Virus genome (UHGV): UHGV-1519562
Reading direction: 5' to 3' (one strand)
Source of the DNA: a virus
Length of the DNA: 64,000 bases
Made by a program: the position numbers and the translations under genes
Part shown: positions 2,188 to 8,843 of the stretch, one piece after another
Layout of the letters: every line of letters starts with the position of its first letter
How positions within the stretch are numbered: position 1 is the first letter of the stretch
Notes under the pieces: generated by a model
Told to the model about the DNA's origin: nothing
The model's input: only the letters and a program-made list of their open reading frames with translations
The model's database searches: none

Positions 2188-2343
2188 ATGTATTATATTT
2201 ATCGAGTTATTGACAAGAAAAAAGAATGGTTAAATATTAAAATTTTAGATGGACAACTTATTTGGACTTGGAAAAAGCACTGCAATAAAGCTATTTCTTT
2301 TTTAAGTATGCGAGAAGCAATAGTCACAAAAGGATGTACTTAA
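2188..2343 (+). CDS. small hypothetical protein, paralog B (51 aa, not in track)
   Basis: manual read; shares YR(I/V)..KEWL motif with 1975..2178. Confidence 0.35.
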   Translation: MYYIYRVIDKKKEWLNIKILDGQLIWTWKKHCNKAISFLSMREAIVTKGCT

Positions 2344-2401
2344 AAGCTTTTAATGTTTCTTCTAAAGACGTTTATATTATATTTAAAAGGAGCTGGTAAT
2401 T

Positions 2402-2617
2402 ATGACTTATCAATATTATGAGTACAACATTGTATTGAAAAATAACGAAATTCGCCAAGGTATTATTAGTGCGGAAGATTATTATTCTGCTCTTGATGAC
2501 ATTATTCATCAGTATAATAATATTAAATCTATTCTATTGTCAGAAATTGATTCTCTTGGTAGTGTAAGTTTTTCTGAAGAAATTATTAATGAAATCAAAA
2601 GAAATGAGGTAGTTTAA
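2402..2617 (+). CDS. hypothetical protein
   Basis: 71 aa ORF, AAGGAG RBS. Confidence 0.6.
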   Translation: MTYQYYEYNIVLKNNEIRQGIISAEDYYSALDDIIHQYNNIKSILLSEIDSLGSVSFSEEIINEIKRNEVV

Positions 2618-2618
2618 T

Positions 2619-2861
2619 ATGGAAACTCATCACGGAATTATTAATCATACTGAGCATTATTCTCTTGAAATCAATAGATTTATGAACGCTCTTGATGCAG
2701 TAATTGAATCTGCTATTGATTATGGTCAAGCAGAAGAAACAGATGAAGAAAGATTAACTCTTAAAACTCTTGATGATAATATTAATCTTTTGTTTAGAAA
2801 GCTAGGGATTTCTGCTGATTGGTACGCTCGCAATGGGCATCTTATCAATAGGGTTAAGTGA
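2619..2861 (+). CDS. hypothetical protein
   Basis: 80 aa ORF tightly coupled to upstream gene. Confidence 0.55.
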   Translation: METHHGIINHTEHYSLEINRFMNALDAVIESAIDYGQAEETDEERLTLKTLDDNINLLFRKLGISADWYARNGHLINRVK

Positions 2862-2870
2862 ATAAAACAA

Positions 2871-2910
2871 AGGTCAACAGATTTTGTAACACTGTTGACC
2901 TTTTAAAAAT
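2871..2910 (+). terminator. rho-independent terminator
   Basis: stem AGGTCAACAG / CTGTTGACCT followed by T-run. Confidence 0.6.
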
Positions 2911-2923
2911 TTTATGATATAAT
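2895..2923 (+). promoter_or_regulatory. sigma70-like promoter (-35 TTGACC, 17 bp, extended -10 TGnTATAAT) with conserved leader
   Basis: hexamers and spacing read directly; member of repeated promoter family. Confidence 0.5.
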
Positions 2924-2956
2924 ATTTATAGAAAATAAAAAAGGAGTTTTAAAAGT

Positions 2957-4630
2957 ATGGAAGATTTTATGAACAAATTAAATCTTACTAAAGATGAAGA
3001 TTTGTTAAATTTTTATTTTCAAACTTACGGCGATGATGAAGCTATGCCCGCAAGAGACTATCTCAAATTTTGGCATGAAGCTAAAAGTGAATATCTACTT
3101 CCTATCTTTAAAAATCAACTTATCTACAAAAAAGAAATCAGTTTTGATGTAGATACTGAAATTCTTATTTCAAGAATTTACAGACTTTTTATTAAAGATA
3201 ATAAAAATTCTAATATCTATTACAAACTTAAAAATAGATTATTTGAAATTGTTGATAATTTATTTCCTAATGTAAGTAAAGATATTCGTATAAACAAAGA
3301 TGTTTCTTGTGATTCATACCTCTGGATAAGTTCTTGTTTAAATTTTCGCACTCTAGCTTTGAATAGAACTGCAACTACTTTTCAATATAATAATTTTAAA
3401 ATCCCGCAAGGTACAAAAGTTTTTAAAGCTCTTAAATCTTTTGTTAATTTTGCGTTAAAGAATAAACTTATTGAACAAATTGAATATGATGAAATAAATG
3501 ATCTTATTGAATATTTGCGGATTCAACATTCTCAAGTATTTAATCAAAAAAAGATTTCCGGCAATTTATGTATCTCAATTCATCCTATGGACTATATTAC
3601 CATGAGTGATAATAGTAATAACTGGGATTCTTGTATGCGCTGGGGCAATGACGGAGGGGATTATAAAGTAGGTACTTTGGAAATGCTTAATTCTCCTTCT
3701 GTTGTAGTTTGTTATCTTGAAAGCAAAAAACCTTGGAATATCAATGATGATTATTCCTGGAATAATAAAAAATGGCGGGAATTATTTATTGTTGATAAAG
3801 ATTTTATTTGTGGTGTCAAAGGCTATCCATATCCTAGTGTTTATCTGGAGACTATGTGTGCTAACTGGTTAGCAGATTTAGTTGAAGAATATTATCACAA
3901 TAAGTTTGATAGAACTAATTTCCGCTATGATAAAAAAATTACATTTGAAACTATTCTAATGTATAATGATATTAATGCAAATGGAGAATGTTTTTTATAT
4001 TATTCAGAGGATGCTATTGAAGCAGATGAAGAAATTGAATTTAATTATAGTGGATATGCAAGATGTTTAAGATGCGGTGAAATTATTTCTGAAGAATGGA
4101 CAGATTCAGATACTTTATTTAGTATGTTTCTTTGTCCTAGTTGCGCAGGTTTGATATTTTGTGCAGATTGTGGCGATTTAATTAATCCAGAAGATTATGG
4201 CGTTGAACACAATGGAAACTGGTATTGTGAAGAATGTATGTTAGATCATGGTTTCTTCTGCGGTGAGTGCGATGAATTTCATTGGAATGATGAAGATGAA
4301 AACACCGCGATTTATGTTGCGTACAAAGACAAAAATTCTGAACAAGTAGAATTAAGAATACTCAATTATTTGTGTCCTGATTGTATTAATGAAAATCTTG
4401 AATGTGGAAATATCGTTGAAGTAGAATATGAAAATCAAAAATATTATGTTGCTACTGTTGATTTTATTACTTCAGAATATGTTAGTCAAGTTTCTCGTTA
4501 TGGCGATAAAGATGGGCATAAAATGATTTCTACTTTTGCTTTTTACCATGATTTAACTTTTAATAAAACAATTTTGTATAATCCAGAATACTTTATTAAC
4601 AAGGAGTATTTAAATGAAGAAAATGACTAA
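2957..4630 (+). CDS. large hypothetical protein, paralog of 6736..8031; conserved NWxSC core and C-terminal CxxC clusters
   Basis: 557 aa ORF; core SIHPMDY..NNWDSCMRWG..GDYKVG aligns with ASIDPFEF..CNWRSCH..GDYRAG of the paralog. Confidence 0.8.
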   Translation: MEDFMNKLNLTKDEDLLNFYFQTYGDDEAMPARDYLKFWHEAKSEYLLPIFKNQLIYKKEISFDVDTEILISRIYRLFIKDNKNSNIYYKLKNRLFEIVDNLFPNVSKDIRINKDVSCDSYLWISSCLNFRTLALNRTATTFQYNNFKIPQGTKVFKALKSFVNFALKNKLIEQIEYDEINDLIEYLRIQHSQVFNQKKISGNLCISIHPMDYITMSDNSNNWDSCMRWGNDGGDYKVGTLEMLNSPSVVVCYLESKKPWNINDDYSWNNKKWRELFIVDKDFICGVKGYPYPSVYLETMCANWLADLVEEYYHNKFDRTNFRYDKKITFETILMYNDINANGECFLYYSEDAIEADEEIEFNYSGYARCLRCGEIISEEWTDSDTLFSMFLCPSCAGLIFCADCGDLINPEDYGVEHNGNWYCEECMLDHGFFCGECDEFHWNDEDENTAIYVAYKDKNSEQVELRILNYLCPDCINENLECGNIVEVEYENQKYYVATVDFITSEYVSQVSRYGDKDGHKMISTFAFYHDLTFNKTILYNPEYFINKEYLNEEND

Positions 4631-4991
4631 AAGAGATTATTATAAAAAAATTCTCCAACATTTTGGAGATAATTGCCCAGAGTCAGAAATGATTAGAAAT
4701 TTTCTTGAAAATGAAATTATGTTGCTTGATAGAAAAACAGAGTCTGCAAAGTTAAAAGCTATTGAAGCAAAAGAAAAAGGTGACGAACTGCGTGAACAGA
4801 TTTATGACATTTTACCTAGTTGCGAAGAAAATCCCATTCCTGTTTCTAAAATAAAAGAAATTTTAAATAATGATTTAATTACTTCTCAAAAAATTTCTGC
4901 GCGTTTGACTCAGTTGTTTAAATTAAACAAAATTGAGAAACAAGAAATTTCTTTTGAAGGTCAGAAAAAGACTGGATATAGAAAAATTTAA
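4614..4991 (+). CDS. hypothetical protein
   Basis: 125 aa ORF, AAGGAG RBS, followed by terminator. Confidence 0.7.
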   Translation: MKKMTKRDYYKKILQHFGDNCPESEMIRNFLENEIMLLDRKTESAKLKAIEAKEKGDELREQIYDILPSCEENPIPVSKIKEILNNDLITSQKISARLTQLFKLNKIEKQEISFEGQKKTGYRKI

Positions 4992-4998
4992 GAAGATA

Positions 4999-5027
4999 AA
5001 GAGGAGAATTTTTTCTCCTCTTTTTTA
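4999..5027 (+). terminator. rho-independent terminator
   Basis: stem AGAGGAGAA / TTCTCCTCT plus T6. Confidence 0.7.
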
Positions 5028-5069
5028 TTACCATAATTATAATAACATATTTTTTGCTAAAAATAAAGT

Positions 5070-5140
5070 TTGAAACTTTTAGCTTAGCTTAGGCCGGGGC
5101 GGAGACGTGCGAATAAAAATGGCTTTAACAAATTTTTAAA
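5070..5140 (+). promoter_or_regulatory. conserved GC-rich element plus mini-ORF (MALTNF), copy 1
   Basis: TTTGAAACTTTTAGCTTAGCTTAGGCCGGGGCGGAGACGTGCGAATAAAAATGGCTTTAACAAATTTTT; related copies at ~13030 and ~49222. Confidence 0.45.
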
Positions 5141-5158
5141 AGATAAAGGAGAATAACA

Positions 5159-5935
5159 ATGTTATATAGTTTAAATACAAGATTAAAAAAACTAATGCCA
5201 GATGAAATCAAATGTCAAGTAAATAGATTGGGAGACATTTTTGATTTAATTAAAGAAAATCCAGATATTAGATGTAATATTCAATACACTAATATGGGCG
5301 AATTATCTGAAAAAAAATTAGATGAACAAATTGATTTTATTAAAGAAGTGGCAAAAGATTATACAATAGCTGTAATTAATTTCCAAGATTTGCGGAAATT
5401 AAAAGCAAAAGGCTATAATGTATATTTAGATTTGCCGGTTTCAGATTGGGAAACTTTTAATAATTTAAAAAATATTGGGGTTTCAGATATTTATATTGAC
5501 GGAGCTTTAGGATTCCAAATGGAAAAAATTGGAAAAGCAAAAGGAAAAATAAAGATTAGAGTTACTCCGCACATGTCGCCAAACGCGCAATGGTCATTTT
5601 CAGATAATGAAAATTCTTTTTATATTCGACCAGAAGATATAGATAATTATTCTAAATATGTAGATATTTTAGACTTTAGAGATAACAGTAAAGATGCAGA
5701 AGAAACTTTATTCAATATTTATAAAAGGAAGATTTTTCCTTTTGATTTAAATAATTTAATTAGACAATTGAATTTACCAACTAATAATATTTATATTGCA
5801 AATAGCTTTTGTTCAAACAGATTGAATTGCGGGCAAAGATGTCAAGAGCCAGATATTTCTTGCCATTTATGTAGAAACGCAATTTTAATTTCTAATAAAA
5901 TGAATGAATATATTAGTTTAACAGAAAAAAATTGA
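5159..5935 (+). CDS. hypothetical protein with C-terminal Cys cluster
   Basis: 258 aa ORF; AAAGGAG RBS. Confidence 0.7.
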   Translation: MLYSLNTRLKKLMPDEIKCQVNRLGDIFDLIKENPDIRCNIQYTNMGELSEKKLDEQIDFIKEVAKDYTIAVINFQDLRKLKAKGYNVYLDLPVSDWETFNNLKNIGVSDIYIDGALGFQMEKIGKAKGKIKIRVTPHMSPNAQWSFSDNENSFYIRPEDIDNYSKYVDILDFRDNSKDAEETLFNIYKRKIFPFDLNNLIRQLNLPTNNIYIANSFCSNRLNCGQRCQEPDISCHLCRNAILISNKMNEYISLTEKN

Positions 5936-5960
5936 TTTTTTTTAAAAAATATAATATAAT
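5932..5960 (+). promoter_or_regulatory. sigma70-like promoter (-35 TTGATT, 17 bp, -10 TATAAT)
   Basis: read directly. Confidence 0.45.
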
Positions 5961-5986
5961 ATTTATATAATAAAAGAAATAATAAG

Positions 5987-6020
5987 TTTTATAAAACTCA
6001 CCTTTGGTGAGTTTTATAAA
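5987..6020 (+). other. stable hairpin in 5' UTR of 6045 gene (attenuator or terminator-like)
   Basis: ATAAAACTCACC-TTT-GGTGAGTTTTAT; core shared with hairpin at ~34510. Confidence 0.4.
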
Positions 6021-6044
6021 ACAAATAAGAAAGATGGGGATGAT

Positions 6045-6770
6045 ATGAAACTAAATAATTATGATTATAGATTTTTAAAAAAGTTGTTACAGTCTACACA
6101 GCATGAACTATTAGAATTTTTGCCTAAAGCGCTTAATGCTATCTACCGCAAAGAAGATATTATTATTACCAACAATTATATTTGCGCTAAAGGTGATATC
6201 CCAGTAGCTTTAGTTGCTCATTTAGACACTGTATATCCAGAACCACCTAAACAGATTTTTCATGACCCAGAATATAATATTATTTGGGGAACAAGTGGTT
6301 TAGGTGCAGATGATAGAGCAGGCGTTTTTGCTATTTTAAATATTTTAGAATGTGGTTATAAACCTACTGTAATCTTTTGTTGTGATGAAGAAAATGGCGG
6401 TTTAGGTGCTTATCAACTGACTAAAGATTTTCCAAAACCTTTCACCAATTTTAAAATGCTTATTGAGCTAGACCGCCAAGGAACAAAAGATGCAGTATAT
6501 TATTCATTAAATAACACTGATTTTGAAAATTATATCAATAATTATGGATTTGAAACTGCGGTAGGTGTATTTACAGATATTTGTATTCTAGGTCCAATTT
6601 GGGATGTTCCCGCAGTTAATCTTTCTGTTGGTTATTTTAATGAACATAGTTATGCGGAAATGCTTTATTACCCGGCTTTATTTGATACTATTGATAAGGT
6701 TTGTTTAATTTTAGAAGAAAAGAGGACAAAAGACTTTGAATTTACAGAAATCACTGGAAGCAGCAATTAA
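6045..6770 (+). CDS. putative zinc metallopeptidase (M20/M28/M42-like)
   Basis: motifs AHLDTV, GADDRAG, DEENGG consistent with the His/Asp/Glu-Glu ligand pattern of this peptidase clan. Confidence 0.55.
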   Translation: MKLNNYDYRFLKKLLQSTQHELLEFLPKALNAIYRKEDIIITNNYICAKGDIPVALVAHLDTVYPEPPKQIFHDPEYNIIWGTSGLGADDRAGVFAILNILECGYKPTVIFCCDEENGGLGAYQLTKDFPKPFTNFKMLIELDRQGTKDAVYYSLNNTDFENYINNYGFETAVGVFTDICILGPIWDVPAVNLSVGYFNEHSYAEMLYYPALFDTIDKVCLILEEKRTKDFEFTEITGSSN

Positions 6771-8031
6771 ATATTCTCAAAATTATTCTTTTCCTCTTGA
6801 TTGTAAAGAAATAATTACTTCTTGGGAAATTAATAAAGCTAAATTGAACAAAGAATATTTGAACGAAAAAATTACTTTACAATTAACTAATGAACCAGTA
6901 TCTATTACTCTTGATGAAACCTTTAGAAGAGATAGTTTTTTTGAATTTATTGATAAAGTTATGAATTTGTTGGAACCATCTGAAGATGCTCCAGATAGTG
7001 AAATAGAACTATATTACAATTTTTATGATTTTCTTAGTGATAATGTAAATAATTTTTATTCTAATATTGTTACTTCAGATTTTTTAAATATTGTAAAACG
7101 TGGAAGTAAAATTATTAAATCTTTTAAGTATTTTGTTAAAGATAAACAAAAGCTCAGAAAGATCCAGGATATGGCAAGTGAGTTAATTCAAACACAAAAA
7201 ATTTCTGGGTATTTATTTGCTTCTATTGATCCATTTGAATTTTTAACTTCTAGTGAGAATAATTGTAATTGGCGTTCTTGTCATTCATTGGATGGAGATT
7301 ATCGTGCAGGAAATATTAGTTATATGAATGATCCATCTACCATTATTGTATTTTTAGCAAATGAAGAAAAAATCAATGTAGAATGTTTACCAAAATCTAT
7401 CAAAGTCTATAATAAAAAATGGAGAATGTTAATTCATATAAATCAAAATGATAATATAATTTATTATGGAAGACAATACCCTTCTTATAATAAAAATTTA
7501 TTAGATTTAGTTTATAATAAATTGTTTTATGATAGAGGTTTTATGCCTCCTAAAGAAGTTACTTTTGACCAAATTAATTTAAATCAAGATAATTGTATTG
7601 ATTTAGACCATAATTATATGGCATTAAATAATAAAGTTTTTGATACTTTAGAATTAATTGATATTCCAGAAAATTCGTTGAATTATAATGATATTGTATA
7701 TTCTTCATTTCATCAAACACAGGTTAGTATTAACAAAAAATATAAATATTATTATAGCAAAGATAAACAAAAGACAATAGATTTATTTTTAACTAAAGTT
7801 GGTTATCCTGTTGCTTGCGCTTGTGGATGCGGCAGAAAAGTAAATAATTCGGCAAGCTTTATTTGTGATACTTGTGCAGAAAAATATAATGCTGAAGGAA
7901 ATTTATATCCAATTTGCTCTTGCTGTGGACAAAGAATAAATTTGAAAGATAAACAAAGTTATAAGCAAGAAGAAGAAGGTCTTTATTGTAATCTTTGTTG
8001 TGAGGAATTAAGTCATTTGAACGTCAATTGA
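6736..8031 (+). CDS. large hypothetical protein, paralog of 2957..4630
   Basis: 431 aa ORF; shared core motif; C-terminal CACGCG..CDTC..CSCCG..CNLCC. Confidence 0.75.
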   Translation: MNLQKSLEAAIKYSQNYSFPLDCKEIITSWEINKAKLNKEYLNEKITLQLTNEPVSITLDETFRRDSFFEFIDKVMNLLEPSEDAPDSEIELYYNFYDFLSDNVNNFYSNIVTSDFLNIVKRGSKIIKSFKYFVKDKQKLRKIQDMASELIQTQKISGYLFASIDPFEFLTSSENNCNWRSCHSLDGDYRAGNISYMNDPSTIIVFLANEEKINVECLPKSIKVYNKKWRMLIHINQNDNIIYYGRQYPSYNKNLLDLVYNKLFYDRGFMPPKEVTFDQINLNQDNCIDLDHNYMALNNKVFDTLELIDIPENSLNYNDIVYSSFHQTQVSINKKYKYYYSKDKQKTIDLFLTKVGYPVACACGCGRKVNNSASFICDTCAEKYNAEGNLYPICSCCGQRINLKDKQSYKQEEEGLYCNLCCEELSHLNVN

Positions 8032-8056
8032 ATTTTTAATAAAAATATATTATAAT
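8028..8056 (+). promoter_or_regulatory. sigma70-like promoter (-35 TTGAAT, 17 bp, -10 TATAAT) plus conserved leader
   Basis: read directly. Confidence 0.5.
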
Positions 8057-8238
8057 ATATTTAGAAAATTAAGAAAGGAATAAAATATGACTGTAAAAGA
8101 GCATGAAGTAAAAGTTTTTAAATGGCATTATACTTTAGTTAAAAGTTCAGCCATTTTTATTTAAAAGATTTTATTAATCAAAATGTTTCAGATATTGATT
8201 ATTATATTGCTGATAATAATGAAAGTAATAAAATTATT

Positions 8239-8544
8239 TTGAATATTAATGGAGTAGAGTATCGTCTTTTGATTAATGATTATCTTCTTTATGATCCTTA
8301 TTATAATACTTTTGTCATATTAGAAAAATCTCCAGAATTTCTTTTTAAAGAATATGAAAAAGATTATGTTATTAAATTTTTAGATAATTATATTGGTAAA
8401 AATCTTCACGATATAACAACTATTTTTAGTTGTGCGAGACATTTTTCTTCTAAAGAAAAAGCTGAAAAGGTAGTAGATTTTTTGAGTAATAATTTTAACA
8501 CTGATAGAGCTTGTTTTAAAATTATTAACTTAAATGAGGAATAA
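8239..8544 (+). CDS. hypothetical protein, tandem paralog 1 (N-terminal part may lie upstream in another frame)
   Basis: EYxLLxxDYLxYDxYY motif shared with next ORF. Confidence 0.6.
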   Translation: MNINGVEYRLLINDYLLYDPYYNTFVILEKSPEFLFKEYEKDYVIKFLDNYIGKNLHDITTIFSCARHFSSKEKAEKVVDFLSNNFNTDRACFKIINLNEE

Positions 8545-8546
8545 TT

Positions 8547-8843
8547 ATGAGTAATACTATTGAACAAAAAGTTAAAATATTTTGTTGGAGTGTTCTTATT
8601 GACAAAAAATTATCTATTTTTTGTTTAGAAGATTTTTTGAATAATATTAACAATATTTCTTTTTATATTTTTATAAGCACTCATAATGATATTATTCATT
8701 TTAAAATTAATGAAAAAGAATATGTTCTCTTAATGGGAGATTATTTGGTTTATGATTCTTATTATGAGAATTTTGCTATATTTCATAAACTTCCAAAATA
8801 TATTCGTAAAATGCAACAAATTGAAAATTTAAAAAATAAATGA
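8547..8843 (+). CDS. hypothetical protein, tandem paralog 2
   Basis: 98 aa ORF; motif EYVLLMGDYLVYDSYY. Confidence 0.6.
   Translation: MSNTIEQKVKIFCWSVLIDKKLSIFCLEDFLNNINNISFYIFISTHNDIIHFKINEKEYVLLMGDYLVYDSYYENFAIFHKLPKYIRKMQQIENLKNK

Follow-up and report, generated by a model that had tools for sequence, protein, structure and literature searches.

At positions 2957-8031 of a 64,000-nucleotide (nt) stretch of the virus genome UHGV-1519562 (hereafter the window, meaning the whole stretch at its full length), two large proteins with a conserved Cys-containing core flank a predicted metallopeptidase. The locus raises two questions: whether the two proteins, here called A and B, are genuinely related, and what such a pair may be doing beside a peptidase in a phage. 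We found that the relationship is real, and that A and B, with three further genes between them (w, T and P), are a fixed pair in an operon that is characteristic of a clade of gut phages 75-200 kb in size. Our answer to the second question is a tentative one.

Homology of A and B and the age of their duplication

The two proteins and their cores lie as follows (aa, amino acids):

2957-4630, + strand: paralog A, 557 aa, with an N-terminal helical domain, an alpha/beta core, a LIM-like pair of zinc fingers with a third Cys4 ribbon after it, and a tail rich in beta structure
3374-3991, + strand: core of A (aa 140-345), with Cys226 encoded at 3632-3634; the double finger (aa 362-431) follows at 4040-4249
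6736-8031, + strand: paralog B, 431 aa, TTG start, with the N-terminal helical domain and core that A also has, then a LIM-like pair of zinc fingers
7069-7725, + strand: core of B (aa 112-330), with Cys182 encoded at 7279-7281; the double finger (aa 356-422) follows at 7801-8001

Using BLASTP with composition-based statistics, A149-427 aligned with B120-421 at 63.5 bits (E 4e-15), and the N-terminal segment was matched at E 2e-13. When alignments of 81 A-type and 86 B-type orthologous sequences were compared by hhalign, the probability was 100% (E 1e-52) over 390 columns that run from the N-terminal helical domain through the core into the Cys clusters. The similarity noticed in a first-pass annotation of this DNA is thus real and persists in a proper alignment, and A and B are, as judged from these comparisons, true paralogs. 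They contain the only two copies of the core in the window. AlphaFold2 predicted A with a mean local confidence (pLDDT) of 87.2 and a global score (pTM) of 0.77, and B with values of 93.3 and 0.88.

The Cys-containing core is the most conserved part of both proteins, and the motifs picked out by eye in the first-pass annotation coincide with its invariant residues. The two paralog families have some 12 invariant residues in common although their overall identity is ~25%. Invariant or nearly so in both (A/B numbering) are S207/S163, P210/P166, D212/(D/E)168, W223/W179, C226/C182 and G239/G192, as well as K271-K-W-R274/K227-K-W-R230 and Y290-P291/Y248-P249. The corresponding motifs in A numbering are Ser-x-x-Pro-x-Asp (207-212), Ser-(Asp/Glu)-Asn (217-219), Trp-x-Ser-Cys (223-226) and a Tyr-Asn-Asp that includes Asp338. 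The invariant Cys226 of A and Cys182 of B are both encoded by TGT.

A and B each have separate orthologs, and their duplication is ancient rather than recent. All 120 matches listed in a search with A scored at least 144 bits to A and at most 85 bits to B, while a search with B retrieved its own separate ortholog set; the orthologs of A and B are 30-40% identical. The family as a whole is large. A profile of the core matched 4,166 of 1.84 billion cluster representatives (clusters at 50% identity), 2,265 of them at E<=1e-30, and the best 150 of the 4,166, which were listed, are all near relatives. The core deprived of its Cys tail still finds thousands of relatives. By comparison, only 22 of ~185,000 GTDB species genomes contain the core family, every one of them on a phage-sized or fragmentary contig of a metagenome-assembled genome, and the family is confined to mobile elements (phages and plasmids).

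The operon, its distribution and its surroundings

We analyzed the genomic context of the core family in IMG/VR, where a scan with the core profile gave 246 loci. The open reading frames (ORFs) of the best 80, together with loci found earlier, were labeled by local hidden Markov models (HMMs), making up a set of 87 loci. The order A-w-T-P-B, on one strand, was present in 67 of these, counting loci that carry two A genes or in which one stop interrupts an ORF. Two loci are rearranged (T B .. P .. A w), and most of the loci that do not match end at contig edges. Related loci are mostly on phage contigs of 75-200 kb. The five-gene order is kept in a relative of 81% identity and also in relatives of only 32-36% identity, and w comes directly after A in nearly all related loci. 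The 22 loci from GTDB, which are on contigs from metagenome bins (Lachnospiraceae, Acutalibacteraceae and other Clostridia, including some obvious mis-binnings), have the same cassette. Taken together, the separate orthologs and the recurrent gene order show that the duplication is not recent. The first-pass annotation had considered a duplicated large gene to be unusual in a compact genome; this view has to be given up, as the genome is ~138 kb (a 96%-identical relative is an IMG/VR contig of 137,669 bp) and the pair is an ancient one, fixed in the five-gene operon of most related phage contigs.

The other features of the operon in the window are the following:

2895-2923, + strand: sigma-70-type promoter candidate (TTGACC, 17 nt, TG-TATAAT; 11 of 12 consensus positions), 34 nt 5′ of the A start codon
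about 2940, ahead of A: putative ribosome-binding site AAAGGAG, read from the sequence
4614-4991, + strand: protein w, 125 aa, with a helical N-terminal part and a winged-helix-like C-terminal part
4998-5023, directly after w: terminator-like hairpin of 11 bp, GC-containing and followed by a T-run (a pattern match only)
5159-5935, + strand: protein T, 258 aa, with a C-terminal Cys4 site
6045-6770, + strand: protein P, 241 aa, a single-domain MH-clan (M28/M20/M42-type) co-catalytic metallohydrolase

The reading frames of A and w overlap by 17 nt and those of P and B by 35 nt, which fits coupled translation. The TTG start of B agrees with its orthologs, in which M1 is 96% conserved. The promoter candidate has an extended -10 element and is the top-scoring promoter-like site across positions 2300-8600; with the terminator-like hairpin after w, it is compatible with early transcription by the host RNA polymerase. 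A perfect 17-bp inverted repeat, GTTTTATAAAACTCACC / GGTGAGTTTTATAAAAC, with a 3-nt loop, is located at 5986-6022 between T and P. It occurs once in the window, no T-run comes after it on the + strand, and its possible roles within the operon are those of an RNA structure or of a palindrome bound by protein.

In related contigs, T and B are often split by a single in-frame stop codon, which is TAG in 14 of 16 cases (L045 14208-14212, L049 9816-9820, L010 12241-12245 and 13 other related loci). The TAG of L045 sits exactly on the conserved Gln of a G-R-Q-Y-P-F motif. These sequences suggest TAG-to-Gln recoding in part of the phage clade. The window is free of such interruptions, and TAG terminates 2 of its 44 long ORFs.

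Core-family proteins are also present in cultured systems. B has 30%-identical homologs in the Enterococcus phages H1, EF1, EF5 and VRE9_1-4; among the cultured phages of INPHARED, A and T had no homologs and the matches of B were limited to this Enterococcus group. Phage H1 encodes three core paralogs (H1_1, H1_5 and H1_7) around a peptidase that is 44% identical to P, and these come after an 80-aa winged-helix protein. The core profile matched H1_5 at E 1e-26 and H1_7 at E 6e-17 (both phrog_18912), and H1_1 at E 4e-15 (phrog_29713). In the plasmid pMM35_02 of Vescimonas fastidiosa MM35, a single core protein (hhalign 98.6%, E 1e-15) is directly followed by a P homolog (E 3e-76), and the pair adjoins genes for PcfJ, PcfK/AcrIIA9-family, YodL and LigA proteins, a neighborhood that we take to be typical of establishment and anti-defense genes. 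The pMM35_02 record (NZ_AP023417.1; L116, 114974-131600) is 142 kb, linear and non-mobilizable, and may be a relative of the clade, either phage or phage-plasmid, whose host is cultured. From the Enterococcus and Vescimonas cases, the recurring unit is a core-family protein plus an MH-clan peptidase. Because this linkage is tight and widespread, a functional link between the two proteins is likely on the grounds of gene neighborhood, which does not indicate of what kind the link would be.

The window has ~29% GC content, with nearly all genes on the + strand. It encodes a topoisomerase II, a DnaB-like helicase, a RecJ-like exonuclease, a Dda-like helicase, NrdD and a radical SAM enzyme in addition to 16 tRNA genes, and this gene content indicates that it belongs to a large phage genome. 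The RecJ-like protein is nearest to those of SPbeta-like Bacillus phages and Geobacillus virus E3 (36-37% identity). Just 3′ of B, two ORFs at 8239-8544 (101 aa) and 8547-8843 (98 aa) have in common a 35-residue motif, EY-LL--DYL-YD-YY--F-I--K-P (BLASTP E 6e-10), and are, by this similarity, a second tandem paralog pair. The tRNA genes, 15 of which were confirmed by Rfam, form two clusters at 10234-12942 and 20167-21479. One of them (12158-12230) has an 8-nt anticodon loop (CUUGAAAA), for which ARAGORN reports the four bases 'tgaa' as anticodon; this tRNA could be of the frameshift or quadruplet type, unless the call is wrong. As read from its translation, a GIY-YIG-like ORF at 11476-11952 (YIYRIIN..KVYIGKT), together with a small ORF at 11921-12124, lies between tRNA genes and looks like a homing-endonuclease insertion in the cluster. 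The second cluster is adjoined by a protein matching phrog_850 ('RNA-binding protein', 21535-23058), and DUF2828/DUF7788 proteins are encoded at most ~8 kb from the cassette in two related loci (L003 5557-7047, L006 15645-16997). If the phrog_850 and DUF2828/DUF7788 proteins are assumed to be one Ro/TROVE-like family, an RNA-related module would recur near the cassette.

Peptidase, zinc sites and the search for a known family

The middle gene had been read as an M28-like metallopeptidase in the first-pass annotation, and this assignment is borne out. P matched Pfam Peptidase_M28 with 24.8 bits against a threshold of 21.3 (E 2e-5), phrog_34186 at E 3.6e-54, and phrog_4191 ('peptidase'). It aligned with PDB 3rza, a PepT-like tripeptidase, at E 2e-6, including the HxD, GADD and EE motifs and the final His. 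The ligand and catalytic set is complete (H59, D61, D89, E115, E116, D143 and H201), with each residue at least 98% conserved in 97 cassette homologs, and P has the co-catalytic site pattern of the MH clan (HxD ... D ... EE ... D ... H). Judging by these residues, P is very probably an active metallohydrolase. A Cys-rich C-terminal tail with two to four CxxC motifs is present in 87 of 96 cassette P homologs and missing from the P of the window. Loss of the tail is common to the closest relatives (L001, L002 and L008); tailed examples are found in L003 (13466-14482), L005 (11138-12097) and L007 (4624-5727).

Residue positions and family conservation indicate that A, B and T all end in clusters of putative Cys4 zinc sites, in keeping with the zinc-ribbon-like clusters first noted by eye. 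A has six CxxC pairs (370/373, 393/396, 402/405, 424/427, 435/438 and 473/476), which make up three Cys4 sites, and B has four Cys pairs (361/365, 377/380, 394/397 and 418/421), which make up two. B of the window lacks a third ribbon, which most of its orthologs have. An HMM of the fingers of A recognized 60 of 100 B proteins. When compared with LIM domains, the A profile matched CRP2 at E 1.6e-7 (LIM2, with eight Cys falling on the eight zinc ligands) and CRP1 at E 2.2e-7, while the match of the B profile was weaker (E 1e-3); the Pfam LIM model does not match A or B.

The two remaining proteins have no clear assignment. For w, 9 of 42 family members matched Pfam HTH_20 and others AlkZ-like, DprA_WH or LexA_DNA_bind, all below threshold, consistent with a winged-helix-like protein. 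The T family comprises at least 237 proteins, none with a Pfam domain, and T had no match in PDB or Pfam. Its invariant residues are E16, R38, W97-E98, D110, D114, R134 and E159, and the Cys4 site C224-x3-C228-x6-C235-x2-C238 is also invariant in the family. By eye only, T shows an alternating beta/alpha pattern. We considered T as a U32-type (UbiU/UbiV/RlhA/TrhP) barrel because its E-I-R-C-P-x-N-Q-L start resembles E-L-L-C-P-A-G-N-L, and rejected the idea after finding no Pfam U32 match in 55 members and hhalign probabilities below 1% against UbiU, UbiV and a four-paralog E. coli profile.

The first-pass annotation could not assign the A/B core to a family, and we could not do so either by profile or structure searches (Pfam, NCBIfam, PADLOC, PDB sequences and Foldseek). 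In scans of the five proteins against Pfam, PHROGs, NCBIfam and PADLOC, M28 for P was the only family assignment, and A and B had no PHROG match at E<=0.01. Pfam scans of individual family members, 44 core sequences (at E<=10) and 55 T proteins, showed no consistent match. Against PDB sequences, phmmer and hmmsearch found LIM matches to the Cys tail only and none for the core even at E<=10, and a Foldseek search of PDB with the B model returned nothing. PADLOC defense models matched none of A, T, P or B, and w at chance level only (E 0.021). No described system with these components was found in the literature. Neither of the outcomes that the first-pass annotation had named as counting against it, a confident match to a known family or a similarity that disappears on alignment, was therefore observed. 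Several catalytic motifs were also considered by inspection, namely Cys-His-Asp (papain/NAT-like), the nitrilase E-K-C triad, AEP primase, ART and a thymidylate-synthase-like site; all were dropped because residue order or conservation did not fit (for example, H/D/N/R at position 209).

Possible roles of the cassette and related systems

What might such a cassette do? Tentatively, we propose a module of several enzymes, expressed early and tethered by zinc fingers, that would act on a host or phage macromolecule by modifying or processing it, a reading that we regard as possible rather than probable. The operon would be transcribed early by the host RNA polymerase from a host-type promoter, and its products would assemble into a multi-protein machine that the zinc fingers hold together or on its target. 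A and B would provide a transferase-type pocket, possibly of GNAT-like topology, and the invariant Ser/Pro/Asp, Trp-x-Ser-Cys, Lys-Lys-Trp-Arg and Tyr-Pro residues would line it. P would contribute a hydrolytic step, as an aminopeptidase or deacylase, and the LIM-like fingers together with w would serve in docking. The machine would covalently modify or process a host protein or nucleic acid during takeover or counter-defense. What we infer here is that the products form a complex, that A and B are catalysts, what kind of target they have and when the genes are expressed. It is doubtful, though conceivable, that the core represents a new enzyme superfamily (a new fold or a far-diverged GNAT-like one) built around the invariant Cys, which with an obligate hydrolase partner, and with T and w where the operon is complete, would form an unrecognized early takeover or counter-defense system of phages and plasmids that covalently tags or edits a host protein or nucleic acid. 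The core family and the operon fit no described kind; conserved hypothetical operons are, however, common in phages.

Several observations weigh against a five-part enzymatic machine. The position of His209 in A is occupied by H, D, N or R in B and other paralogs, so that there is no evident conserved Cys-His pair, and the invariant Cys, for which the first-pass annotation had suggested a catalytic role, could be structural or metal-binding. The promoter at 2895-2923 is called solely from its match to the consensus. P-family peptidases are also widespread on their own in unrelated phages that have neither A nor B. About 6 of the 87 loci have A-w-T-P without B, and T is absent from the Enterococcus and Vescimonas versions in the loci examined; the five parts are thus not all obligatory.

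Alternatively, A and B may be non-enzymatic zinc-finger regulators or scaffolds, for example modulators of host RNA polymerase, of replication or of some other host complex; the invariant core residues would then form a surface for binding or coordinate a structural metal, with P acting independently. This is unlikely in our view, although no catalytic motif of a known class was recognized, position 209 is variable, and sigma factors are encoded near the cassette in one related locus (a phage sigma factor in L006) and near the core/peptidase pair in pMM35_02. Ser, Asp, Cys, Lys, Arg and Tyr-Pro residues that are invariant across ~25%-identical paralogs and thousands of clusters are more typical of an active or ligand-binding site, and the strict linkage with an intact hydrolase and an enzyme-looking T also speaks against scaffolds.

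Rather improbable is a pathway of nucleic-acid modification (phage DNA hypermodification or tRNA/RNA modification), with T as a barrel-type base or sugar enzyme and A and B as Mom-like GNAT-fold transferases; an adduct derived from an amino acid would be trimmed by P, and the fingers and w would bind nucleic acid. Phage Mu Mom is a GNAT-fold DNA-modifying enzyme, and the weak GNAT-like fold of the core would agree with such a role, as would the winged helix, the zinc ribbons that A, B, T and most P proteins carry, and the many invariant acidic residues and Cys4 site of T. The 16 tRNA genes, the radical SAM enzyme and a T4-like nucleotide-metabolism set in the genome point the same way. However, HMMs for TGT/DpdA, U32, radical SAM, methyltransferase and aGPT-Pplase matched none of A, B and T, the U32 comparison of T was negative, and the Enterococcus and Vescimonas versions do without T. 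LIM-type fingers, moreover, usually bind proteins.

We consider it more improbable still that P matures or regulates A and B as its substrates (pro-proteins), an idea that goes back to the first-pass annotation. MH-clan enzymes (M20/M28) are typically exopeptidases that act on N-termini, P invariably adjoins a core-family gene in three kinds of element, and its reading frame overlaps that of B. Against this, both A and B have conserved N-termini, which were modeled in well-packed helices (pLDDT >90 from residue 1) with no evident pro-peptide, the P family is found in many phages without A and B, and many M20 members are deacylases that do not process proteins. Finally, that the A/B similarity is a chance or compositional artefact, or a functionally unimportant recent tandem duplication, is refuted: an AT-rich genome and Cys-rich proteins could inflate scores, but the composition-based BLASTP and profile-profile results given above, the thousands of relatives found by the core alone and the separate conservation of the paralogs in more than 80 distant genomes leave virtually no room for it.

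If the tentatively preferred reading of an enzymatic module is right, the cassette would add a new catalytic family and a multi-protein pathway to the early infection of large Clostridia gut phages and of Enterococcus phages. The core family is absent from Pfam, NCBIfam and PDB, yet its structures are predicted with confidence and its genetic context is clear; its size, its restriction to mobile elements and its absence from the databases make it a sizeable piece of phage 'dark matter'. Since reduced versions are present in two cultured systems (Enterococcus H1/EF1/EF5/VRE9 and pMM35_02), experiments are feasible now. If A and B are instead non-catalytic scaffolds, this would be an ordinary conserved hypothetical operon.

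Among known systems, the GNAT superfamily (including non-CoA members such as FemX/FemA and HAT1) offers a possible likeness in fold. The element order predicted for the core fits the GNAT topology (b1-a1-a2-b2-b3-b4-a3-b5-a4-b6(-b7)), with a weak likeness of the models (Z <8). Helix a4 is nevertheless apparently missing, and A and B add the large N-terminal helical and C-terminal zinc-finger domains. In place of the pyrophosphate-binding GNAT motif A (Q/R-x-x-G-x-G/A, in the b4-a3 loop), A and B carry an invariant Y-P-[YF]: the sequence at the b4-a3 junction reads G-Y-P-Y-P-S-V in A and R-Q-Y-P-S-Y-N in B, without a Gly-rich loop. GNAT structures were absent from the top 60 structure matches of A, and no acetyltransferase, FemAB or related Pfam model matched A or B at E<=1 or any of 44 core sequences at E<=10. 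Given the absence of the cofactor loop and of acetyltransferase HMM matches, we treat 'GNAT-like' as a lead and not as a classification.

The PcfJ-like domain (PF14284), which occurs in conjugative plasmids and phages, resembles the core by eye in its combination of zinc ribbons with a C-terminal alpha/beta domain and in its motifs (a strand ending in Pro, an x-Cys motif and strands ending in G-[FY]). In pMM35_02, the gene for a genuine PcfJ protein lies at a distance of 2.4 kb from the core/peptidase pair. A PcfJ-like assignment of the core is not supported, as the PcfJ HMM matched neither A, B nor the 44 cores and hhalign gave ~0.1% against one PcfJ sequence or a three-sequence profile, a weak test because that profile is tiny.

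For P, the nearest known relatives are PepT-like tripeptidases. MH-clan relatives (Pfam Peptidase_M28/M20, with PepT-like tripeptidases and ArgE/LysK deacylases) have 370-410 aa as compared with 241 aa in P, which consists of the catalytic domain only, without the lid/dimerization domain. In the comparison with NCBIfam equivalogs, P scored far under the cut-offs, and substrate specificity is therefore not transferable to it. The fingers of A, C370X2C373X19C393X2C396X5C402X2C405X18C424X2C427, are close to the LIM spacing CX2CX16-23(H/C)X2CX2CX2CX16-21CX2(C/H/D). They differ in that the ligands are all Cys (C4-C4 rather than C2HC-C4, with Cys instead of His as the third ligand), in a linker between the fingers of 5 residues instead of 2, and in the third Cys4 ribbon that follows. 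DA1 proteins associate LIM fingers with a metallopeptidase, in which they resemble this cassette; in the plant DA1 LIM-peptidases, however, a DA1-type zincin is fused to the fingers, whereas here the peptidase is a separate MH-clan protein. The phrog_18912/phrog_29713 proteins of the Enterococcus phages H1, EF1, EF5 and VRE9, whose function is not annotated, differ from the window, where A and B match no PHROG, in having three paralogs, no T and another gene order; they resemble it in their match to the core profile, in the peptidase and in the winged-helix protein.

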